A stretch of DNA of 54,015 nucleotides. It comes from Patescibacteria group bacterium (lineage in GTDB: Bacteria > Patescibacteriota > Minisyncoccia > Phycocordibacterales > UBA9973). The notes beneath the pieces are model-generated. The model searched no databases and was not told where the DNA came from. It was given only the letters and a program-made list of their open reading frames with translations. Both the position numbers and the translations under genes were made by a program. The DNA lies in NCBI GenBank assembly GCA_038061755.1, contig JBBTYN010000001.1, positions 1 through 54,015 of the forward strand, written 5' to 3'. Numbering within the stretch: the stretch's first letter is position 1; each line of letters starts with the position of its first letter. Positions 1-34,581 of the stretch are shown one piece after another.

Positions 1-1490
1 TACCGTGAGGGAAAGGTGAAAAGCAGCCCGATTAGGGCGGTGAAATAGACCTGAAACCGTATGTCTACAAGGAGTTGGAGTTCGTCTTCGGATGAACGAC
101 AGCGTGCCTATTGAAGAATGAGCCAACGAGTTTATGCATACTGCTAGGCTAAGCTGACTAAAACAGCGCAGCCATAGGGAAACCGAGTGTTAATAGCGCG
201 ACTGTATATTTATTTATACGGGTAGAATGCATAAGACCCGAAGCCAGGTGAGCTTGCCATGAGCAGGATGAAGTTCGTCGAAAGACGAATGGAGGTCCGA
301 ACGGGTAGATCGTACAACGTCTTCCGATGACTTGTGGTAAGGAGTGAAAAGCTAATCGAACCTGGTAATAGCTGGTTCTCTCCGAAATAGCTTTAGGGCT
401 AGCGTCAAGTGTTTTCTCTGGGGGTAGAGCACTGGAAGGTTTCGACAGGGAGCAATCTCGCGAAACCTATCAAACTCCGAATACCAGAGACCATAGCTTG
501 GCAGTTAGGCCATGGGGGCGAAGCTCCATTGGCCAAAAGGGAAACAGCCCGGATCTCAAAATAAGGTCCCTAAATATATACTAAGTGTAAGACAAGAAGG
601 TGAGATTTCTTTAACAATGAGGAGGTTGGCTTAGAAGCAGCCATCCTTTAAAGATAGCGTAACAGCTCACTCATCTAGAGATTTTGCGTCGAAAATAATT
701 GGGGCTAAGTATATTACCGAATTTGAGGATGTGGTCCGACCTCGGTCGGACCACGTGGTAGGAGAGTGTTCCAATCTGCTGTGAAGCAGGACTCGTGAGA
801 GCCTGTGGAGCGTTTGGAAGTAAGAATGTTGGCACAAGTAACCGCAATGGGGCTGAGAACGCCCCACGTCGAAAGATCAAGGTTTCCTTGGTAATGTCAA
901 TCAGCCAAGGGTTAGTCGGGCCTAAGGGAATGGTGAAAACCGTACTCGATGGACACAGGGTTAATATTCCCTGACTTTTGTATTTAGTGACGAGATGACG
1001 GAGTGTAGTATGTATCGCTCATTATTGGATTTGAAGTTTGTTTACTAAAGATGATGTGTAGGAAAATCCGCACGCTGCTTTTAATGGCGAATCTAAGGTA
1101 GATGAAAAGTTTTATTCTTCGGGATAGGACAATGATACAAAGCATGCTTCCAAGAAAAATTTCTAAACTTATAAATATAAAATCCGTACCGCAAACCGAC
1201 ACAGGTGATCAGGTCGAGTAGACCAAGACGAACGAGTGAGTGGTCCCCAAGGAACTCGGCAAAAAAGCAGCCGTAACTTCGGGATAAGGCTTGCCCTTTA
1301 TTAATTTAGAGGGTCGCAGCGAAAGTATTCCTGCCAACTGTTTACCAAAAACACAGCTCCCTGCGAACTCGTAAGAGGATGTATAGGGGGTGACACCTGA
1401 CCAATGCCAGAAGGTCAAATATCGACGTTGTTATGTAGCAATATGTGATGGTGATTGATATAAGCCCTGGTGAATGTCGGCCGTAACTAT

Positions 1491-2292
1491 AGACAAAACC
1501 GTTGTAGTTACGCAAATAAATCTTGCCAAATGCTGGAAACTCTGGGTCCAATTTACATTGGATAAAAAAGTGTTGATTAGTACGAGCACACGTCGATGTG
1601 TCGTGACAATCTAATCACGCAGACAATCAGCAGGAAAGACTTCTGATCTAATAAAACATAATGAAAAATATCCCGATCGATATAGGAAACTATATTGCAG
1701 GATTTACAGACGGCGAAGGAAGCTTCAATGTCTCAATCAAAAAGAGGTTAGATTATAAAGAAAGTTGGAAATTAACCGCATCGTTCAATATTTCCCAAAA
1801 AGATAGAGTAATTCTTGCTTGGATAAAACATATCTTGGGATGTGGAACATTACGGGAAAGAAAAGATGGTGTTGTGTATTATGAAGTAACTAATATTGCT
1901 TCATTACACGATGTCATTATTCCATTCTTTAAAGTATATGGTTTTCGTTCTGCGTATAAAAAAAATAATTTTAGAATTTTTTCTGAGATTGTTAAAATAA
2001 TGCATAAAGGAGAGCATAATACCAAAGAAGGATTTCTAAAAGTTTTAGAATTAAGAGAGAAACTTAATCCTGGAATTGGAAGAAAACGAAAATACACATT
2101 ATCAAATGTAGTAACTTCAGAAGAATCCTCAGAGACTATACGCAAGACATTTTCAAATCAATAATTGGAGTCGACGATTTGGAAACGATGATATAGTCCG
2201 ATCTCTATGGCAACATAGAGCTAACATGTTTTAGTTTTTATTTGGTAAATAGTTTTATTATATATGTTTATATCATTCAACCTTAAGAAAAG
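1491..2292 (+). mobile_element. Group I intron at 23S position L1917 (E. coli numbering) carrying a LAGLIDADG ORF
   Basis: The H69 sequence stops after ...GTAACTAT (T at 1490) and resumes with AACGGTCC at 2293. The 802-nt insert follows a U and ends in G. ATATAGTCC (P7-3'-like) lies at 2191-2199. Confidence 0.85.
1661..2164 (+). CDS. LAGLIDADG homing endonuclease, single-motif (homodimer-type), intron-encoded
   Basis: 167-aa ORF with an N-terminal YIAGFTDGEGSF motif, lying wholly inside the L1917 intron. Confidence 0.9.
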   Translation: MKNIPIDIGNYIAGFTDGEGSFNVSIKKRLDYKESWKLTASFNISQKDRVILAWIKHILGCGTLRERKDGVVYYEVTNIASLHDVIIPFFKVYGFRSAYKKNNFRIFSEIVKIMHKGEHNTKEGFLKVLELREKLNPGIGRKRKYTLSNVVTSEESSETIRKTFSNQ

Positions 2293-2969
2293 AACGGTCC
2301 TAAGGTAGCGAAATACCTTGTCGGGTAAGTTCCGACGCGCACGAATGGTGTAATGAGTGGGAAACTGTCTCGGGGACCAGCTCGGTGAAAATACAATACC
2401 GGTGAAGATGCCGGTTAAGTGCAGTTAGACGAAAAGACCCTAGAAGCTTTACTATAACTTTATATTGAGCATGTTTTTTGTCTGCGTAGCATAGATGGGA
2501 GAGGTCTGATGGATTCGATTTTGGTTGAATTCTACTCGTCAGTGAAATACCATTCTTACCGAAGGCATGTTCTAACCAATACGGTAAAAACGTATTGAGA
2601 CAGTATATGGTGGATAGTTTTACTGGGGCTGTACCCTCCTAAAGAGTAAAGGAGGGGTTTAAAGGTAATCTAGGCGCGAATGGAAACCGTGCCGATAGTG
2701 TAATGGCACAAGATTGCTTGACTGTAAGAGGTACATCTCGAGCAGGTACGAAAGTAGAACATAGTGAACCGACCACCCGTGTTAGACGCGGTGGAAGATT
2801 AACGGATAAAAGCTACTCTAGGGATAACAGGCTAGTTCCGCCCAAGAGTTCATATCGACGGCGGAGTTCGGCACCTCGATGTCGGCTCACCTTAGCGCGG
2901 CGGTGGAGAAGCTGCCAAGCGTTTGGCTGTTCGCCAATTAAAAAGGTACGCGAGCTGGGTTCAGACCGT

Positions 2970-3276
2970 ACTGAAGCGGAAATTTATTTCGGCTGAAGTA
3001 CAGTTTGAACCCTCAGAGGAATTTGAATTGTAAAAATTTGAACTGTTTTAATCGAAATTAACCAAGTACATTAAATTGTACACACGGCGGTGCTGTATAG
3101 AAATATATAGTAACAAGCTGACTTATATCGGTGGAATCCGAATCCAGAAATGGAAGGATAATACCGAGGGAAAAATTATTTGTAAAAATATTTTGCCCGT
3201 AGAGACTAAACGTCAGCAGTCCTAATTTTAGGATGAAGCTATAGTCCAATCCACACAGTAATGTGTGACGTAGATG
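2970..3276 (+). mobile_element. ORF-less group I intron at 23S position L2593 (the I-CreI-type homing site)
   Basis: GGTACGCGAGCTGGGTTCAGACCGT (ends 2969) is rejoined by CGTGAGACAGGTTGGTC at 3277. The 307-nt insert follows a U and ends in G. It has GTAGAGACTAAACG (3199-3212) and GCTATAGTCC (3238-3247), resembling P7 strands of known group I introns. It contains no credible ORF. Confidence 0.8.
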
Positions 3277-3328
3277 CGTGAGACAGGTTGGTCTCCTATC
3301 TACTGCACTCGTTGATTCTTGAGAAGAT

Positions 3329-3359
<31 letters not shown>

Positions 3360-3609
3360 TGACCTCTGGTGTACGAGCTGTCCTGCCAAGGGCACTGCTC
3401 GGTAGCTATGTCGGGAATGGATAACCTCTGAAAGCATCTAAGAGGGAAGCCAGCTTCAAGATTAGGAATCGTTAAGAACCGTGAGAGATGATCACGTTGA
3501 TAGGCTTTAAGTGTAAATGCAGTAATGCATTCAGCTGAGAAGTACTAATGTTTCGATTCCTGTTAAGAAATTTGAAAATCACAAAAAAATTATTGAGATC
3601 GAGTTTTCA

Positions 3610-27937: not shown

Positions 27938-28327
27938 ATGAATAATAATGTAAAAATTTTTATTTTAATAATTGGTTTTTTAATTTTAGGAACAGTGGGC
28001 ACTGTTTTACTTCAATCAAACAGTGTTTCTTCAGGTCCTGGTAAATATGATGGTTTTGCAACTTGTTTAAAAGACAAAGGCGCAGTTTTTTACGGAGCTT
28101 TCTGGTGTACTCATTGTCAATCACAAAAGAAACTTTTTGGTTCGTCTCAAAAATTATTGCCATATGTTGAATGTTCTAGTCTTGATGGACAAAGTCAATT
28201 ACAAATATGTAAAGATAAGAAAATAACAGGTTATCCAACTTGGACATTTGCCGATGGGACAAGTCTTAATGGAGAGATTCCACTACAACAATTAGCCGAT
28301 AAAACTTCTTGTGTGTTGCCTCAATAG
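27938..28327 (+). CDS. Exported thioredoxin-fold thiol-disulfide oxidoreductase (VKOR-partner-like)
   Basis: Signal anchor, FYGAFWCTHCQSQKKLFG (CxxC) and GYPTW. Confidence 0.7.
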   Translation: MNNNVKIFILIIGFLILGTVGTVLLQSNSVSSGPGKYDGFATCLKDKGAVFYGAFWCTHCQSQKKLFGSSQKLLPYVECSSLDGQSQLQICKDKKITGYPTWTFADGTSLNGEIPLQQLADKTSCVLPQ

Positions 28328-28432: not shown

Positions 28433-29041
28433 ATGTTACGATTTACAAAAAAAGAACTTTCTTTAATGCGGAAATTAAACACCCCAACCAAGGTACAGGA
28501 TTTTGTTAATAGGCTTTCTTTTAATTTTGAAAAAGGTGGGGAAACGTTAAAATCTCCAATTTTAACATTAAGAGCGCGAAAGGCGCATTGTTTTGAGGGA
28601 GCAATGCTCGGCGCTTATATTTTGTCTTTACATGGTTTTACGCCTTATTTGATGTATTTGAAAGCAATAAAAGGAGATTATGATCACGTTATTGTTCCAT
28701 TTAAAGTTAATGGATTTTGGGGTGCATTATCAAAAACCAATCATGCAGTTTTGCGTTATCGTGAGCCGGTGTATAAAAGTATTCGCGAGCTTGCGTTGTC
28801 CTATTTTCATGAATATTTTTTAAACAACGGGCAGAAGACCTTGCGACAATATTCTGCGCTTTTAAATTTAAATACTTTTAAAAAAGATTGGGTGGCGATG
28901 GACGGTAATCTTTGGTATATAGATAAAAAGTTGGATAAAGTAAAACATTACGACATTATCCCTAAGTCATATATCAAAAAACTTCGTAAAGCAGATAAGG
29001 TGGAAATCAAGGCGGGGAAGATAGTGGAACAGAGAAGATGA
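28433..29041 (+). CDS. Hypothetical protein, possible Cys-His (transglutaminase-like) fold
   Basis: KAHCFEGAMLGAYIL...YDHVIVPF pattern. This is a weak call. Confidence 0.5.
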   Translation: MLRFTKKELSLMRKLNTPTKVQDFVNRLSFNFEKGGETLKSPILTLRARKAHCFEGAMLGAYILSLHGFTPYLMYLKAIKGDYDHVIVPFKVNGFWGALSKTNHAVLRYREPVYKSIRELALSYFHEYFLNNGQKTLRQYSALLNLNTFKKDWVAMDGNLWYIDKKLDKVKHYDIIPKSYIKKLRKADKVEIKAGKIVEQRR

Positions 29042-29112: not shown

Positions 29113-30393
29113 TTATGCCCAATTTTTATTTATTGTTTTCTCTACGAGGATCCTTGGGGACCCATAATATAGTTTATTGAATGTTTCTATGGCTTCTTTT
29201 GTGGCAATTGGAAATTTTGATGTTTTTGGAGGAATACCCATACCAGAAAATGCATTGCTGGTCTTACCATCTATCATTAACTTTATATAGAAACTAAACT
29301 TCGGTAAATTAATAAAGTCTTCAACTACCATTGGTATAAATTCTTTTGACAATATCTCCGCATCTTCTGCACCGACTTCAAAAGAAAGAATTGTACCAAC
29401 ATTACCCAAAACTGCATCTTTAATATTCTCTGGCAACTGAGCTAAATATTGGTTGGTTATATGTACGCCTAATCCATATTTACGTGATTCGCTCAACATA
29501 CTGATGAATGTATCTGTTGTGAAATTCTGAAACTCGTCTACATATAGATAAAATGGCTTGCGATCACTTGATTCTTTATGAGCTCTTTTTAGTATTCCAG
29601 CTTGCAGTTTTGAAAGTATTATAAGCCCGAGCATGTGAGCGTTTATATCGCCAATTTTACCTTTTGAAAGATTAACTAGTAATATCTTTTTGTTATCCAT
29701 TAGGCTTTCAAAATCGAAACTGCTTTTATGCTGTCCTATTATATTACGCATTAGCGTATTATTCATAAATTGTCCAAATTTTGACATAAAATAATTAAGC
29801 ATTTCGCTTTTATGAAAATCTGATGTTTTAGACATTTGTTTTGTCCAGAATTCTATAACCAGAGGATCTGTTAAGTGTTTTCTCTTTTCTATTTCAAAAT
29901 TATGGTCAATAAATAGTTTTGGAATCTCCACAAGACTTCCGCCATCTGGTCCAGCCATGATAGTAAGTGCCGCATTTCTAAGCCAGTGCTCAAACTGGGG
30001 ACCTATAATACCTGTTCTTTGTGGATCAAATAGTTTATAAAATATTTGTATACATTCATTAACCAAAAAATCTTTTTCTATTTCAGAATGAGCTTCCAAT
30101 ATATTAAGTCCGAAGGGGAAATTAATATCGCTTGGATCAAACAAGACCACATCCTCAAGCCTATCTTTGGGAATATTTTCAAGCAACCAATCTATGGATT
30201 CCCCATGTGGATCAATAAAACAAACTCCGTTTTTGTTCTCAATATCTTGCAAGCACATATTCTGGAATATAGTTGATTTACCTACTCCTGTTTTACCTAC
30301 CATGTACATATGTCGTAATCTGTCTTTTTCACCATATTTGATAATGGTTGTTTTGCCGTGATATTTATTTACTCCGATAGTTATATTATTCAT
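29113..30393 (-). CDS. Soluble TraD/VirD4/HerA-FtsK-type P-loop NTPase (DUF87-like)
   Basis: Walker A GKTGVGKST, FIDPHGES, Walker B FYLYVDEFQNF and SESRKYGLGVHITNQ. No TM segment. Confidence 0.8.
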   Translation of the reverse strand: MNNITIGVNKYHGKTTIIKYGEKDRLRHMYMVGKTGVGKSTIFQNMCLQDIENKNGVCFIDPHGESIDWLLENIPKDRLEDVVLFDPSDINFPFGLNILEAHSEIEKDFLVNECIQIFYKLFDPQRTGIIGPQFEHWLRNAALTIMAGPDGGSLVEIPKLFIDHNFEIEKRKHLTDPLVIEFWTKQMSKTSDFHKSEMLNYFMSKFGQFMNNTLMRNIIGQHKSSFDFESLMDNKKILLVNLSKGKIGDINAHMLGLIILSKLQAGILKRAHKESSDRKPFYLYVDEFQNFTTDTFISMLSESRKYGLGVHITNQYLAQLPENIKDAVLGNVGTILSFEVGAEDAEILSKEFIPMVVEDFINLPKFSFYIKLMIDGKTSNAFSGMGIPPKTSKFPIATKEAIETFNKLYYGSPRILVEKTINKNWA

Positions 30394-30398
30394 AGGAT

Positions 30399-30719
30399 TT
30401 ATATATTATTAATGTTTAAAGGTTTCTTATTAAAGTAGTTATCATCTATCACAGGCTTTGCTTCATTGTTAATTTTTTCCTGAATTCGTAATTCATTATT
30501 AGCAACTCCAAGAAGAATTTTATTCTGCTCACTTATCTTATCTATGATAATATCTTTTATTTCCGGGCTTATATAATTAGCTATAGATAAAAGCATTTCG
30601 TTTTCTAATAGAAATATATTATTAACCTGTTTAAGTGAAAGGGAATTACTTGTGCCTTTTTGTTCTTCTCCGCTACTGAAAGAAGTTTCTGTATTTTTTA
30701 GTTTTTCGTCATCGTTCAT
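30399..30719 (-). CDS. Small hypothetical protein (106 aa) of the two-ATPase operon
   Basis: Sits 5 nt and 9 nt from its neighbours on the same strand. No motif recognised. Confidence 0.55.
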   Translation of the reverse strand: MNDDEKLKNTETSFSSGEEQKGTSNSLSLKQVNNIFLLENEMLLSIANYISPEIKDIIIDKISEQNKILLGVANNELRIQEKINNEAKPVIDDNYFNKKPLNINNI

Positions 30720-30728
30720 AAGATTTTA

Positions 30729-32390
30729 TTATTTATTTAATAATGTGTTGACTAATAAAGATTCACAAGTTTCTTCAATAAATCTTTTCACGGGGCGTGC
30801 TCCAAATCTTTCGTCAAGTAGTGGTTTAATTTTTTCTTCTAGTTCTTCTGCGTTTATCTCAAAAGAAACGTTATGCTTAATCAGTCTTTTTTCTACCTTC
30901 TTTATTTCAAGTTTAGCTATGTCTATTAGATTTGGCAGAGTAAGTGGATTAAAAATTAGAATGCTATCAAAACGATTAATGAACTCTAGTCTAAATATTT
31001 TTGCTAACTCAGGAATCATTTTTTCTTGTATAAACTTTGTATCCATAATATCTTCTCTTTTATTAAATGCTTCCAAAATTACACTTACTCCAATATTAGA
31101 AGTTGCCATTATGATGGAATTGCACGCATCCACTGTTTCATTTTGTCCTGATGTTAGTCTGCCATCATCTAGGACCTGCAAAAAGATATCAAAGATCTTT
31201 GGATGTGCTTTTTCTATTTCATCTAATAGTATTAAACAATGGGGTTCTTTCTGTAATGCATTTGTAAGAGCTCCACCACTTTCGTAGCCACTATACCCAG
31301 CAGGAGCTCCTATTAATCTCTGCACAGTATGATCTTGCCCGAATTCTGACATATCAAATCTTATAAAGCTTTCTTTTCTCCCAAACATAATTTCAGAAAT
31401 TAATTTGGCAGTTTCAGTCTTTCCAACCCCAGATGGTCCTAATATTAAAAAAGATCCCAATGGCTTGTTTGGATTTCTTACTCCTAATTTTGCTCTTTGC
31501 AGTGTTTGTATTATTTTATTGACTGGTTTAGTTTGATTAATAATTTTAGAGTTCAATGTTTGATTTAAATTTTTTAATATTTCTATTTCGTTTCCGCTAA
31601 GTTGCATTTTTGGTATGCCTATTTTACTAGAAATGATATTAGAGATTATTTCATCCGTTAAAATTTTTTCATTCATAGATTTGGTAAGCACAATTCCTTC
31701 ATCCATAAGGCTAATAGCCGCCTGTGGTAGTTGCCCCAAACTTGGAAATTTCTCTACATAAGAAATAATATCTTGCATTACCACTGAAGAAACAATAATT
31801 TTATGATCTTTGTTTAGTTGTGCTAATTTACTTTCCAATATTTGAATTTGTTCAAAATTATTCTGCTTTTTCAATCTAACTGTTTCAAACACTTTTATGA
31901 ATGCCGGATACTCACGTTCTATAAAGTTATATTCTTTTGGTTCCATAGTAAGAATTACCTTAACTTCAGGATTTTTAAGAACGTCATAATATAACCTGGC
32001 TATATTTTGTAATAGGCTTGGATTTCCATATACGCTTCTGCCAAAGTTATCAATGAATAAAATACAAGAAGGTAATTCGCTCATTACGTTTTTAAAATAA
32101 ATTCCTTCTTCACTTCCACTATCAAACCTAAATAAATGTTCATTACCTAACTGAACAAAGCTTAATTGCTTATATTTATCTTGCTTAATCATCCTTTCAA
32201 CCCATCCATATATAAGATTTGTTTTACCTGTACCACTTAAGCCAACTATAACTATGTTGTTATTAATGCTTCGATTCGCAATTCTAGTTAATCGATCCAT
32301 CTCTTCCATTCTTCCCACAACTTTCGGAAATTTACCCAAAGAAATTTCTTCTCGTAAGTCGTGATATTCAGTTTTTTTGAAAGTTTTCAT
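30729..32390 (-). CDS. Minimal double-AAA+ Clp/Hsp100-like ATPase (no N-domain, no M-domain)
   Basis: D1: GLSGTGKT with ILFIDNF. D2: GPSGVGKTETAK, LILLDEIEKAHPKIFDIFLQVLDDGRLT and IIMATSN. Only 553 aa. Confidence 0.85.
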   Translation of the reverse strand: MKTFKKTEYHDLREEISLGKFPKVVGRMEEMDRLTRIANRSINNNIVIVGLSGTGKTNLIYGWVERMIKQDKYKQLSFVQLGNEHLFRFDSGSEEGIYFKNVMSELPSCILFIDNFGRSVYGNPSLLQNIARLYYDVLKNPEVKVILTMEPKEYNFIEREYPAFIKVFETVRLKKQNNFEQIQILESKLAQLNKDHKIIVSSVVMQDIISYVEKFPSLGQLPQAAISLMDEGIVLTKSMNEKILTDEIISNIISSKIGIPKMQLSGNEIEILKNLNQTLNSKIINQTKPVNKIIQTLQRAKLGVRNPNKPLGSFLILGPSGVGKTETAKLISEIMFGRKESFIRFDMSEFGQDHTVQRLIGAPAGYSGYESGGALTNALQKEPHCLILLDEIEKAHPKIFDIFLQVLDDGRLTSGQNETVDACNSIIMATSNIGVSVILEAFNKREDIMDTKFIQEKMIPELAKIFRLEFINRFDSILIFNPLTLPNLIDIAKLEIKKVEKRLIKHNVSFEINAEELEEKIKPLLDERFGARPVKRFIEETCESLLVNTLLNK

Positions 32391-32399
32391 TTATTTATT

Positions 32400-33875
32400 T
32401 TAGGCTACTATTTTTAATGTTATTCCATTTAAATTCCTTTGTTGGTATATACTAGGAATTGATTTTATTGATTTAGTTTCTTGTTCTTCTTGGTTTATAT
32501 TTGGAACTGATCGAGAGTTTGCTGGTTCAGCGTTTCTTAACTCTGTTGTATTTTGAGATATTCCGAGAATCTGTAATAAAATCTCATGACCGTTGAGAAG
32601 TTTAGCTTTTAAGTTTTCCTCTGTAATTAGTTTTTCCTCTATTAGTTTTTCTAAAGATATTGGAGCTTCATTTCTTATAATATTATTAACTTCGTTTCTG
32701 TTTATACTTAATACGATAGCTTCCACCTTATCCCCTTTGGGTTTTTCTACTGCTATAGTTTTTGCTATTATTGGTGCTGTTTTAACTTCTGTCGCTTTTG
32801 CTTCAATTACTACCACCGGGGTTTCTGTTGTAGCAATTGGTATTTCCACTTTAGTGGTCACCACTTTTTCGCTTGGAACTTCTTCTGCAACAGGAGCTGT
32901 TATTTCTTTCTCTCTTGCTTCCTCCACCACTGCTGGTATTTCTGCTGTTTCATTTGTTATTGTCTCAACTGTTACAGCAGCAATTGGTATTTCTATATTC
33001 AGAATAGATTGTGCCAACGGCTCCTCAGTTATTTGTATTTGCTCTGCTGTCGTAACAGTTTGTTCTGGCTCTTTATTTTCCGGCTCATCTCTTAATAATT
33101 CAATAATTCTGTCTTCCAGTGTCGTTGCTTGGTGCTCTCTATTATCTATCGTTCTATCTACTGCTATTTGTGCCGTATCTAAATGGTTAATTTCAGTTTG
33201 TATCACAATATTTTCTGTATCCTGAATAGTTAAAGTTTCAGTTCTTTCAGCACTTTGTTCGCTGACTGCTTCTAGTCCTGTCAATAAAGATTCTACTATC
33301 ACTGCTTCTTTATCTACTTCTTCTTGTTTGTCTATATCTATACTTAGTTCCAAATTCAAAGTTGCTTCTTCCAGTTTTGACCCCTCTACTTTATCGATTG
33401 GTTTTTCTTCTTCCCCTTCTTCCTTTTCCGTATATGATCTAATTTCATATTTTAGATTTCCCTCGCTGTCCATTCTTGCAGCTGTGAAATATGTGGTTTT
33501 TCCTTCTACGTGATCTAGCAACATCATGGACTGTTCTGGATTAGCAATAAGAGTGGTAAGCAGATCCACCTGTGCAGTCTTTTGTTCTTCAGTTAGTGTG
33601 GAAAGCACAAAAGTTCCTTCATATTCAAGTTTAAACTCTTCACTGCCTCCACGATTGGCTGTAATAAACTGGCTCAAAGTTTCTTCTTTTTCTTCTATCT
33701 TTTCGTCTTCAATGCTTTTTTCTTCTTTTTTTTCACCTATTACAGCTTCTTGTTCGTTGTTATTTTCATGTTCTTGATTATTAGTATCATATTCAAAATT
33801 TTCACCAAAATCTACTTCAGTTTCTTCAACATCTATCTCACTCATTACTTCTTCATTTGTATCAAATGTATCCAT
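32400..33875 (-). CDS. Hyper-acidic Glu/Thr/Ile-rich low-complexity protein (491 aa)
   Basis: First gene of the operon, with no signal peptide or TM segment. The N-terminal block FKLEYEGTFVLSTL...KYEIRSY is followed by an E-rich region. Confidence 0.7.
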   Translation of the reverse strand: MDTFDTNEEVMSEIDVEETEVDFGENFEYDTNNQEHENNNEQEAVIGEKKEEKSIEDEKIEEKEETLSQFITANRGGSEEFKLEYEGTFVLSTLTEEQKTAQVDLLTTLIANPEQSMMLLDHVEGKTTYFTAARMDSEGNLKYEIRSYTEKEEGEEEKPIDKVEGSKLEEATLNLELSIDIDKQEEVDKEAVIVESLLTGLEAVSEQSAERTETLTIQDTENIVIQTEINHLDTAQIAVDRTIDNREHQATTLEDRIIELLRDEPENKEPEQTVTTAEQIQITEEPLAQSILNIEIPIAAVTVETITNETAEIPAVVEEAREKEITAPVAEEVPSEKVVTTKVEIPIATTETPVVVIEAKATEVKTAPIIAKTIAVEKPKGDKVEAIVLSINRNEVNNIIRNEAPISLEKLIEEKLITEENLKAKLLNGHEILLQILGISQNTTELRNAEPANSRSVPNINQEEQETKSIKSIPSIYQQRNLNGITLKIVA

Positions 33876-33904
33876 AGAAACAATTAATAAATAAAAACAA
33901 AAAA

Positions 33905-34129
33905 AATCCTGCTCAGGCAGAATTTTGGATCCTTCAAATAAATATATAAATAAAGGTTATCCTGCTCGGGACACGTAAAATGATTGGTAGTCGGACTTGT
34001 TCCTTACACCTATTGGTGTTTAGGACTTACCGTAGCGGCACTGTACTGGAATCTAACCAGTTTCCCCAATCATTTATTTTAATTTTCAAGCGAACTTCTT
34101 TAGTATATACTTACTTTATATTATGTCAA
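33905..34129 (-). promoter_or_regulatory. Candidate promoter plus structured 5' leader (attenuator/riboswitch-like) of the four-gene operon
   Basis: On the minus strand: TTGACA (34129-34124), 16 nt, TATACT (34107-34102). A relatively GC-rich core is closed by a 10-bp helix, 34075-34066 with 33987-33978. Duplicated GAGCAGGAT boxes sit around a hairpin plus U-tract. Confidence 0.3.
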
Positions 34130-34581
34130 AGAAGAATGTGGATATTAAAAAAACAACAGGAAAGAGGCGAACAAGGATAATGATATTTGGAACTTTTGAT
34201 GGTTTGCATCCTGGTCATATTGATTTTTTTAAACAGGCAAAAAATTTCATCAAAAATTCATTTTTAATTGTTTCAATAGCTAGAGATAAAAATGTTAAAA
34301 GAATAAAGGGGGAATATCCCATTAGAAATGAACGAGAAAGAATGATTTTAGTAAAAAAAAGCAAGCTAGCAGATAAAGTGGTTTTGGCAGGCAAGGTAAA
34401 ATATTTACCCCATATATTGAAAGAAAAAATAGATATTATCGCTCTTGGTTACGATCAAAAAGCTTATGTACAAGAACTTAAAAAAGATTTGAAAAATAAA
34501 GGTATTTTTGTAAAAATTGTGCGTTTAAAATCTCATAAAGAGAAAATTTATAAGAATCACTTGCTAAAAATTAAAAGATAA
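34123..34581 (+). CDS. Cytidylyltransferase-fold nucleotidyltransferase (TagD/RibL-like)
   Basis: GTFDGLHPGHIDFF (HxGH) motif. The true start may be the ATG at 34180 (MIFGTFD...). Confidence 0.75.
   Translation: MSKKNVDIKKTTGKRRTRIMIFGTFDGLHPGHIDFFKQAKNFIKNSFLIVSIARDKNVKRIKGEYPIRNERERMILVKKSKLADKVVLAGKVKYLPHILKEKIDIIALGYDQKAYVQELKKDLKNKGIFVKIVRLKSHKEKIYKNHLLKIKR

Follow-up and report, generated by a model that had tools for sequence, protein, structure and literature searches.

The stretch of DNA analysed here (the window: 54,015 nucleotides (nt) of contig JBBTYN010000001.1 in assembly GCA_038061755.1, from a Nomurabacteria-like member of the Patescibacteria) has a GC content of about 33% and contains an operon of four genes on the minus strand behind a leader of the cobalamin riboswitch class. 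Each of the four open reading frames (ORFs) starts with ATG. The first, ORF1 (32400-33875), encodes an acidic and apparently mostly disordered protein of 491 amino acids (aa). It is followed by ORF2 (30729-32390, 553 aa), a minimal Clp/Hsp100 protein with two AAA+ modules, by ORF3 (30399-30719, 106 aa), a small acidic protein, and by ORF4 (29113-30393, 426 aa), which is predicted to be a soluble P-loop NTPase of the TrwB/VirD4 kind. The spacings between the genes are 9, 9 and 5 nt, and the block is flanked by plus-strand genes at 28433-29041 and 34123-34581. An earlier note on this DNA, made from the sequence without database searches, had described such a block, and its coordinates and gaps are reproduced in the ORF list of the window. 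The motifs it quoted from ORF2 (GLSGTGKT, ILFIDNF, GPSGVGKT, LILLDEIEKAH and IIMATSN) and from ORF4 (GKTGVGKST, DPHGES, FYLYVDEFQNF and SESRKYGLG) are all present in the translations.

A conserved module of four genes

The four ORFs are real genes and not chance ORFs, because ORF4 has more than 8000 detectable homologues and because ORF1-like, ORF2 and ORF3 genes are syntenic with it in 42 independent loci. The best 120 homologues of ORF4 are all of soluble size (about 396-452 aa) with 68-97% identity, and the organisms they come from are named Nomura-, Kaiser-, Wolfe-, Colwell- and Magasanikbacteria. ORF4 of the window is 93-96% identical to ORF4 of metagenome-assembled genomes (MAGs) of Nomurabacteria/Paceibacterota. 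A scan with ORF4 using one genome per species gave 376 loci, and 80 of these (L001-L080) were retrieved for study. The four-gene module was found in 42 of the 80 species-level loci (L001-L041 and L043), carried by Nomura-, Kaiser-, Doudna- and Magasanikbacteria. In these 42 loci ORF4 has 58-96% identity, an ORF2 orthologue is located 5' of ORF4 at 39-95% identity and an ORF3-like gene of 75-141 aa lies between the two in every case. Wherever sequence upstream of ORF2 was available, the first gene is ORF1-like and acidic, varying in length from 237 to 910 aa and in its fraction of aspartate and glutamate (D+E) from 0.13 to 0.28. The genes flanking the operon differ between lineages, which suggests that the four genes constitute a self-contained unit. 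The earlier note regarded the operon as an orphan; it is instead a widely conserved patescibacterial module, syntenic across lineages and found mainly in those of the Paceibacteria/Parcubacteria.

The loci that lack the operon come from Berkelbacteria, Saccharimonadales and other groups, and there ORF4 matches, with 52-58% identity, the C-terminal half of a larger protein (about 800 aa). These larger relatives have an N-terminal transmembrane segment and an uncharacterised domain of about 350 aa; in most cases a second paralogue, about 900-1000 aa long and with both features, comes next (for example L054:7861-10257 and L054:10257-13172, among L044-L080). Several of the tandems are found downstream of a gene with a tgt-like N-terminus (unconfirmed) and a small acidic ORF. 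No Clp gene and no riboswitch were found in the non-operon loci inspected from Berkelbacteria, Saccharimonadales and unclassified Patescibacteria. ORF4 looks like a soluble derivative of this phylum-wide, membrane-anchored ATPase, which resembles type IV coupling proteins (T4CPs); the change would have gone from the anchored to the soluble form.

The fold predicted for ORF4 is that of a T4CP/HerA-type NTPase without a transmembrane segment, similar to soluble TrwB. Its Pfam matches are just above the cut-offs, with 26.2 bits for TrwB_AAD_bind (cut-off 20.5) and 23.8 bits for TraG-D_C (cut-off 22), together with DUF87. The AlphaFold2 model has a mean predicted local distance difference test value (pLDDT) of 83.6 and a predicted template modelling score of 0.87, and the first Foldseek match is TrwBdeltaN70 (E 4.5e-9, TM-score 0.54), followed by Cagbeta, DotL, HerA and VirB4. 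TM-scores for the T4CP hits are about 0.54-0.65 at 12-16% identity to the solved T4CPs, and the Walker A and Walker B residues are invariant in 30 homologues. A PDB sequence search with ORF4 gave nothing significant, the best hit being HerA at E 0.014, and ORF4 does not reach the NCBIfam cut-offs for TraD/VirD4 (SXT_TraD 47.6 versus 366 bits, conju_CD1115 35 versus 250 bits). The protein is labelled 'hypothetical', 'TraM recognition domain-containing' or 'ATP-binding' in the databases. It starts 25 residues before Walker A, and a crude Kyte-Doolittle scan over 19 residues, made on homologues and not on the window's own protein, gave no transmembrane segments in most of the soluble ORF4 orthologues. 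The same crude scan gave none in homologues of all four proteins, the window's own four being unscanned. The Pfam matches and the model with TrwBdeltaN70 as its best structural match agree with the earlier view of ORF4 as a cytoplasmic TraD/VirD4/HerA-type protein with no transmembrane anchor.

The predicted nucleotide-binding and all-alpha-domain fold of ORF4 is shared with the T4CPs TrwB of R388, VirD4, Cagbeta and DotL, and ORF4 is nearly equal in size to TrwBdeltaN70. In contrast to canonical T4CPs, it has no N-terminal transmembrane segment, no linkage to relaxase or virB4 genes, a Clp-type partner and control by a B12 riboswitch. It is also far more conserved than T4CPs of mobile elements, with 65-97% identity across patescibacterial lineages. 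HerA/FtsK-type ATPases (HerA-NurA, SIR2-HerA, DUF4297-HerA and mad8 of MADS) have the P-loop core in common with ORF4, with Foldseek E values of 1e-8 to 1e-5 and PADLOC matches to mad8 and HerA. However, T4CPs rank higher in the structural comparison, no nuclease, SIR2 or DUF4297 protein accompanies ORF4, and neither the barrel nor the HAS domain of HerA was detected in it. The closest relatives outside the Candidate Phyla Radiation (CPR) lack a transmembrane segment, are annotated 'T4SS DNA-binding domain' and have at most 34% identity. They are mostly found on plasmids typed as non-mobilizable (463 of 644 records, many of them from Bacillus), and the best match among them is located alone among transposases on a Sulfitobacter plasmid (L280, NZ_CP081110.1, 99994-101181).

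ORF2 has a clearly recognisable second AAA+ module (D2), with Pfam matches to AAA_2 (9e-55) and ClpB_D2-small (6e-10). The first module (D1) is found by AAA_16, AAA_lid_9 and related models, and in comparison with ClpB in the PDB the two modules score 262 bits (D2) and 33.6 bits (D1). D2 has conserved the pore loop GAPAGYSGY (GAPxGYxGY), Walker A and B, sensor-1, the arginine finger and sensor-2. D1 has kept the Walker A motif GxGK[TS], but in each of the 42 orthologues the catalytic glutamate of Walker B is replaced by N, D, S or G. D1 of the orthologues also lacks the KYR pore loop, and its pore-loop region is not conserved. ORF2 thus resembles the class I Clp/Hsp100 proteins (ClpB, ClpA, ClpC and ClpV) in having two AAA+ modules with a canonical AAA_2 D2 and D2-small domain, but differs from them in its length of only 553 aa and in the loss of several parts. 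No Pfam match to Clp_N was found in ORF2, and the alignment begins at ClpB residue 166 and ORF2 residue 10. The M-domain, at about 402-505 in ClpB, has no counterpart in ORF2, the D1 alignment ending at 402 and that of D2 starting at 505. The loop by which ClpA, ClpC and ClpX dock to ClpP (IGL, IGF or VGF) sits between sensor-1 and the arginine finger of the last AAA+ module; in the segment of ORF2 containing TSNIGVSVILEAFNKREDIMDTKFIQEKMIPELAKIFRLEFINRFD there is no [IVL]G[FL], and the alignment shows no insertion relative to ClpB.

The NCBIfam scores of ORF2 are about a third or less of the cut-offs for ClpB, ClpA and ClpV (360 bits against 1232 for the ClpB equivalog). Because the ClpP loop is missing and D1 lacks the catalytic glutamate, ORF2 is probably a protease-independent unfoldase with a single active ring, D2, and a D1 that is dead for hydrolysis. 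The Pfam matches and the ClpB alignment bear out the earlier description of a two-module Clp/Hsp100 protein without N-domain, M-domain and ClpP tripeptide. That D1 with its Asp-Asn Walker B would bind ATP and not hydrolyse it is likewise consistent with the retained Walker A lysine and the replaced glutamate in every orthologue. A search with the D1 region for the distribution of the family returned three fragments and was uninformative. Judged from their sequences, each of the two ATPases lacks defining features of its canonical family, ORF2 those of Clp and ORF4 those of the T4CPs.

ORF1 has an isoelectric point (pI) of 4.3 and a net charge of about -65, with 22.6% D+E, 9% lysine and arginine (K+R) and many threonine, isoleucine and valine residues. 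The protein is acidic, as the earlier note had it, but with these values the term hyper-acidic is too strong. In the AlphaFold2 model the pLDDT is 70-88 only at residues 63-153 or thereabouts and the rest is disordered. No match to ORF1 was found in Pfam, PADLOC or NCBIfam. It has 21 close sequence homologues, all unnamed or hypothetical, and the body of the protein cannot be aligned across lineages. The C-terminal tail, however, is conserved in the family as [LMI]-x-[RKE]-[RIM]-A-A-COOH; in the window it reads ...NGITLKIVA. ORF1-family proteins end in AA in 27 of 43 cases and in A in 35 of 43, whereas the corresponding numbers for 1790 background ORFs of the same loci are 13 (0.7%) and 108 (6%), and among the 76 ORFs of the window this type of tail is unique to ORF1. 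The 43 tails come from related sequences and their independence is overstated in this comparison, so the significance of the tail rests on its retention while the bodies diverge. ORF1 had been proposed as a cargo or a DNA mimic; the conserved tail is compatible with a cargo, and the DNA mimic is without direct support. Homology between ORF1 and other proteins found behind the riboswitch described below (clusters 4, 6, 8 and 9) was rejected, with hhalign probabilities of at most 0.3%.

ORF3 is also acidic (pI 4.7), with the conserved C-terminal motif VLDxxYFxQKxLD, and has no match in Pfam, PADLOC or NCBIfam. It is probably a conserved small partner protein, and its sequence reads as helical. 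A comparison with the small proteins beside the membrane-anchored T4CP paralogues was negative in hhalign.

The leader and the genes that share it

Read 5' to 3' on the minus strand, the leader consists of a promoter-like site, an aptamer, a terminator and the start codon of ORF1 at 33875. The promoter-like site (34102-34129, minus strand), immediately 5' of the aptamer, is sigma-70-like (TTGACA-16-TATACT) by consensus matches only (11/12) and is the best site in a 6.4-kb scan. The aptamer (33965-34113, minus strand) matches the cobalamin riboswitch family RF00174 of Rfam (clan CL00101) with 32.5 bits, the gathering threshold being 31.5. Between the aptamer and the ORF1 start there is an intrinsic terminator (33893-33926, minus strand; hairpin at 33903-33926) with a 10-bp stem, a 4-nt loop and a T-run. 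A near-invariant motif, CCCGAGCAGGA, lies at 33960-33970 (minus strand) in the expression platform, where it would act as the anti-terminator strand and possibly as the L13 kissing-loop partner of L5 (GUGCCGC). A terminator 3' of ORF4 was searched for and not found.

Ten orthologous leaders (L015, L017, L021, L022, L023, L031, L032, L037, L146 and L176) reach the Rfam gathering threshold for RF01689 (AdoCbl-II) or RF00174, with 36.2-48.9 bits. An alignment of 26 operon leaders (A1) has an invariant core and covarying helices, with double changes in 8 of 15 pairs. When the named structure is placed on A1, 95.1% of the cells pair, compared with 24-51% in slid controls, and the covariation score is 0.42 versus 0.14 with none of 500 shuffles as high. 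A covariance model built from A1 (R1) gave one match per locus in the 1.26 Mb searched, always just 5' of the ORF1-like gene and on the same strand. R1 matches the window (111.8 bits) and 28 loci at 61-118 bits, including three outside the model, and five weaker matches represent a sequence variant of the leader. No match was found in 37 loci without the operon. Upstream sequence of sufficient length was available for 35 operon loci, of which R1 matches 33, and the remaining two (L016 and L024) show a variant core by eye. By score, structure and covariation the leader is of the cobalamin riboswitch class.

The motif CCCGAGCAGGA is exact in 23 of the 26 aligned leaders, the other three (L008, L009 and L010) having CCUCGAG(C/U)A(A/AA)GGGA-type variants. 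In most loci its complement is found in the terminator, in the 5' arm and loop (CUGCUCGGG or CUCGGG), and most of the orthologous leaders folded have a hairpin and U-run like the terminator in the window, where the whole leader folds with z = -2.96. This layout appears to be that of a transcription-termination switch in which terminator and anti-terminator are conserved. A 3-bp pairing between CCCGAGCAGGA and L5 can be formed in all 26 leaders, with one double change from G-C to A-U, and hints weakly at an OFF state with a kissing loop. The operon leaders resemble the cobalamin riboswitches of Rfam (RF00174/RF01689) in aptamer core, covarying helices, a B12-box-like segment and a terminator-type platform, but differ in the near-invariant CCCGAGCAGGA element and in scores that are close to the gathering thresholds. 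The exact pattern including CCCGAGCAGGA was also found outside the Patescibacteria, in MAGs labelled Bacteriovoracaceae/Deltaproteobacteria/Oligoflexia (L097, L136 and L145), and is therefore a feature of a riboswitch subclass and not specific to the CPR. It is located upstream of proteins resembling TonB-dependent outer-membrane receptors, by sequence look only, in L136 and L145, and L136 has a class II, B12-dependent ribonucleotide reductase (RNR) further downstream.

When a collection of genomes was scanned for the core of the riboswitch, in the form GTGCCGCWACNGTRA-N(43-73)-CCCGAGCAGGA, at least 119 loci were found, mostly labelled Patescibacteria or uncultured MAGs among the matches listed. 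In at least 57 of them the pattern is followed by a small DUF4430 protein (PF14478, 4e-13) and then a secreted or anchored protein of 530-780 aa. In the one large protein of this kind scanned with Pfam, an alpha/alpha-toroid repeat was found together with a Cobalamin_bind match of 27.9 bits (PF01122, cut-off 25). Vertebrate transcobalamins have DUF4430 as their C-terminal domain (PMC4350170), and the combination of DUF4430 with Cobalamin_bind and toroid therefore points to transcobalamin-like B12 binders on the surface. In these B12-capture operons (L085, L103, L108, L160, L196 and about 50 others; L200-L279) the DUF4430 protein has a transmembrane anchor and the toroid protein is secreted or anchored C-terminally, so that what are the alpha and beta halves of one protein in transcobalamin seem to be separate polypeptides here. 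The binder genes are often followed by a DUF6580 membrane protein (7e-49) and in some loci by thioredoxin-like and DsbB-like genes. A reverse search with the transcobalamin-like toroid domain gave 80 loci, and R1, although built solely from operon leaders, has a match upstream on the same strand in 66 of the 80 (59-120 bits). The assembly MFLP01 contains both the four-gene operon (L020) and a binder locus (L245), each with its own copy of the riboswitch, and the two are therefore co-regulated and not alternatives.

The pattern scan also includes at least 11 loci with matches to ORF2 or ORF4. Seven of these are the four-gene operon, three of them re-sampling L002, L005 and L036. The other four constitute a second T4CP operon behind the riboswitch (L156, reverse strand; L165:2316-7005; L179:914-5826; L083:4569-8000), in which genes for an uncharacterised protein (386-671 aa) and for a smaller one of 137-170 aa are followed by that for a T4CP-like ATPase with a membrane anchor, 782 aa long where the gene is complete. 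The first-gene products of L156, L165 and the related L109 (cluster 8) share the C-terminal motif ...LPxxG[VI]I[FY]..., and in L165 a gene with a pre-ATP-grasp domain follows the ATPase.

Two further kinds of gene are found behind the same RNA. A 4.3-kb contig labelled 'uncultured archaeon' (L104) has an RF00174 match of 36.3 bits before the large subunit of a class I RNR (ATP-cone and Ribonuc_red_lgN/lgC) and a probable small subunit, which from the gene order is probably the classic arrangement of a B12-independent back-up enzyme. Loci of the Saccharimonadales type (L098, L117, L124, L134, L187, L192, L193 and L194) have an uncharacterised first gene of 440-640 aa. The products inspected have Zn-ribbon-like CxxC motifs at the C-terminus, and two of them end in ...LVLAA or ...VALAA, similar to an ssrA tag.

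Because the same RNA controls genes for B12 capture and a B12-independent RNR, we infer that it senses corrinoids and represses; the ligand would be a corrinoid that turns the switch off on binding, by analogy with other cobalamin riboswitches. The operon very probably belongs to a patescibacterial B12 regulon, since this riboswitch type is common to the operon, the binder loci and the class I RNR locus. To our knowledge the genes of the operon are unlike the genes for B12 biosynthesis, transport and isozymes that make up classic B12 regulons, and no counter-example was met in the literature searched. Nor was any account found there of this operon, or of Clp or T4CP genes under a B12 riboswitch, and none of the papers relates cobalamin riboswitches to Patescibacteria, or Parcubacteria to cobalamin and RNR, in a relevant manner.

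Possible roles of the operon

The operon might encode a module of two ATPases, induced by B12 starvation, that engages ORF1 as its client and threads it, possibly for export. We put this forward tentatively, as the reading with the most support, plausible but still some way from being probable. At low B12 the repression by the riboswitch would be lifted and the operon made, alongside the transcobalamin-like surface binders. ORF2 would recognise the C-terminal tail of ORF1 and thread the protein through D2 as the sole active ring, the ORF4 hexamer would serve as a receptor of the coupling-protein type and as the motor for hand-over, and ORF3 might be an adaptor or regulator. The fate of ORF1 would then be export or delivery as part of the response to B12 starvation, for example via a chromosomally encoded type IV secretion system (T4SS) of the Patescibacteria. 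We infer all of the protein-protein interactions, the threading of ORF1 and its fate. ORF1 is taken as the client because a disordered body with an ssrA-like tail suits the pore of an AAA+ protein, and for a protein that would be threaded and left undegraded, export is the simplest fate to assume.

As receptors and motors, T4CPs recognise signals at the C-terminus of type IV substrates, usually in concert with small partner proteins, and the CagZ-Cagbeta complex is among the Foldseek matches of ORF4. The operon resembles the systems VirE1/VirE2, CagZ/CagF/CagA and IcmSW with its effectors in combining a large and variable putative client that has a conserved C-terminal tail, a small acidic partner and an ATPase. 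In four other lineages a large protein, a small protein and a membrane-anchored T4CP-like ATPase are found together behind the riboswitch, with a C-terminal tail of the large protein conserved among three members of cluster 8, which repeats the pattern of substrate, partner and coupling protein.

Several observations weigh against the threading of ORF1 for export. The ...AA tail could equally be an ssrA-like degron by which the housekeeping ClpXP keeps ORF1 short-lived. When the folded domain of ORF1 was compared with the PDB in Foldseek, nothing was found below E 0.08, and the domain offers no link to B12 chemistry. ORF4 is without the N-terminal membrane domain with which canonical T4CPs dock. 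As the earlier note had stated, no T4SS, relaxase, ClpP, nuclease or methylase gene is found nearby; in the 19 loci with listed ORFs, relaxase and T4SS genes (virB4 and others) are absent from the neighbourhood of ORF4, which extends to about 7.5 kb on its upstream and 3.5 kb on its downstream side, and they are likewise absent from the window flanks searched with Pfam. For T4SS genes the distance is at least about 9 kb in every locus examined. The same neighbourhoods contain no integrative and conjugative element, and the genes do not resolve into an ordinary ClpB or ClpC with a coupling protein in such a locus. The RF00174 score in the window is marginal, 1 bit above gathering, and ligand binding and the OFF direction are both deduced. 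Finally, a class II, B12-dependent RNR adjoins the operon in L009 and in L039/L040, which points to nucleotide metabolism.

A large distance from secretion genes is common for coupling proteins in this phylum. In a survey from 2025, 5,713 VirD4-like T4CPs were found in 2,918 Patescibacteria genomes, with 148 of them near virB4, and T4SS genes were present in most patescibacterial classes, Paceibacteria included; for coupling-protein genes far from secretion systems the authors could suggest only exaptation (PMC12102498).

The RNR neighbours suggest another role, in which the operon bypasses the loss of class II RNR activity when B12 is lacking by salvaging deoxynucleotides from imported DNA. 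ORF4 would then be a DNA motor like TrwB, FtsK, HerA or CedD, and ORF2 would remove or remodel ORF1 as a DNA mimic that gates it. B12 riboswitches classically control B12-independent substitutes, as in the class I RNR locus L104, and the RNR beside the operon in L039/L040 is accompanied by NrdR. The fold family of ORF4 is that of DNA translocases (TrwB, HerA), a weak NCBIfam match to the DNA-import ATPase CedD (4e-7) exists, and ORF1 is polyanionic. On the other hand, the adjacency to RNR is limited to two independent lineages among about 40 loci, and genes for a nuclease, a ComEC-like channel or a nucleotide kinase are missing from the operon, as is any DNA-binding domain. ORF1, with 23% D+E, 9% K+R and much threonine, isoleucine and valine, is less DNA-like than known mimics, and its conserved tail and the need for a protein unfoldase are left unexplained. 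We consider deoxynucleotide salvage unlikely, though it deserves to be kept in mind.

Export could also be taken in a stricter form, in which the operon feeds ORF1, C-terminus first, into a T4SS or another conduit and the exported protein acts on the host or on the surface to gain corrinoids. In this specific version export is quite unlikely.

It is very doubtful that the operon maintains cofactors or enzymes, with ORF2 and ORF4 as an ATP-driven chaperone or reactivase that removes or recycles scarce corrinoid held by damaged B12 enzymes or by very tight binders, or loads it onto apo-enzymes, and ORF1 and ORF3 as co-chaperones or scaffolds. Its place in the B12 regulon would suit such a role, and an ORF2 without a protease partner fits remodelling. 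ATP-dependent reactivases exist for adenosylcobalamin enzymes, and AAA+ chelatase-like genes are found in other B12 regulons. The known reactivases, however, are Hsp70-like or G-proteins and not Clp proteins or T4CPs, and none of the four proteins has a detectable domain for binding B12. A fast-evolving ORF1 of 237-910 aa is unlike a conserved co-chaperone, and it is hard to see the need for a T4CP-type hexamer.

An anti-phage defence island or a remnant of a conjugative or mobile element is extremely improbable: the PADLOC matches of ORF2 (PDC-M37B, 2e-32; DolB, 6e-30) and ORF4 (mad8, 3e-14; HerA) are at the domain level and represent generic AAA+ and P-loop cores, with none for ORF1 or ORF3, no partner genes and no effector nuclease, methylase, relaxase or T4SS gene nearby, and B12-riboswitch control is no feature of known defence systems; relatives of ORF4 with at most 34% identity do occur on plasmids and in Bacillus phages, but the two plasmid loci examined have no Clp neighbour and unrelated contexts, and ORF2 and ORF4 are far below the NCBIfam cut-offs for ClpB, ClpA, ClpV and TraD. 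The 65-97% identity of ORF4 and the housekeeping neighbours with lineage-specific synteny argue instead for vertical inheritance of the operon.

A large part of bacterial diversity belongs to the Patescibacteria (CPR), which are host-dependent and mostly uncultured. With this operon one large and highly conserved subset of their T4CP genes gains fixed partners, namely a minimal unfoldase of the Clp type, the small ORF3 protein and an acidic protein with a conserved tail that would be the client, and also a regulatory input in the form of the B12 riboswitch that is common to the transcobalamin-like binders. The B12 regulon outlined here comprises surface binders, the DUF6580 membrane protein, class I RNR, Zn-ribbon proteins (two of them with LAA at the C-terminus) and the T4CP operons. 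Corrinoid limitation should be the condition under which this otherwise opaque machine is expressed. If the machine does export protein or move DNA on B12 starvation, vitamin regulons would gain a new kind of member in this operon. If the client is exported, the operon would provide a first candidate substrate, recruiting machinery and trigger for a T4SS that is essential to episymbiotic growth, and among the thousands of 'orphan' T4CP genes in the phylum, at least those for soluble proteins in such operons would be accounted for.

Neighbouring genes and other features of the window

The plus-strand gene at 28433-29041, convergent with the 3' end of the operon, is DUF553/transglutaminase-like. 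Convergent genes of this type are also found in three related genomes, at L001:10288-10896, L005:6166-6819 and L021:10346-11005, and the products, that of the window included, have 202-219 aa. About 0.8 kb past the 3' end of the operon there is a gene for a thioredoxin-like secreted protein (27938-28327, plus strand) with the motif AVFYGAFWCxHC. A pair of genes for a thioredoxin-like protein and a DsbB-like membrane protein occurs inside some of the riboswitch-controlled B12-binder operons (genes 3-4 of L085, L108 and L196), and the thioredoxin-like gene near the operon and in the binder operons may be coincidental synteny.

The 23S rRNA gene at the beginning of the window (1-3569) contains two group I introns (Rfam RF00028) at 2028-2220 and 3062-3268. 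Within the same gene an ORF of 167 aa (1661-2164, plus strand) encodes a LAGLIDADG homing endonuclease (PF00961, 2e-20) and overlaps the first intron match.

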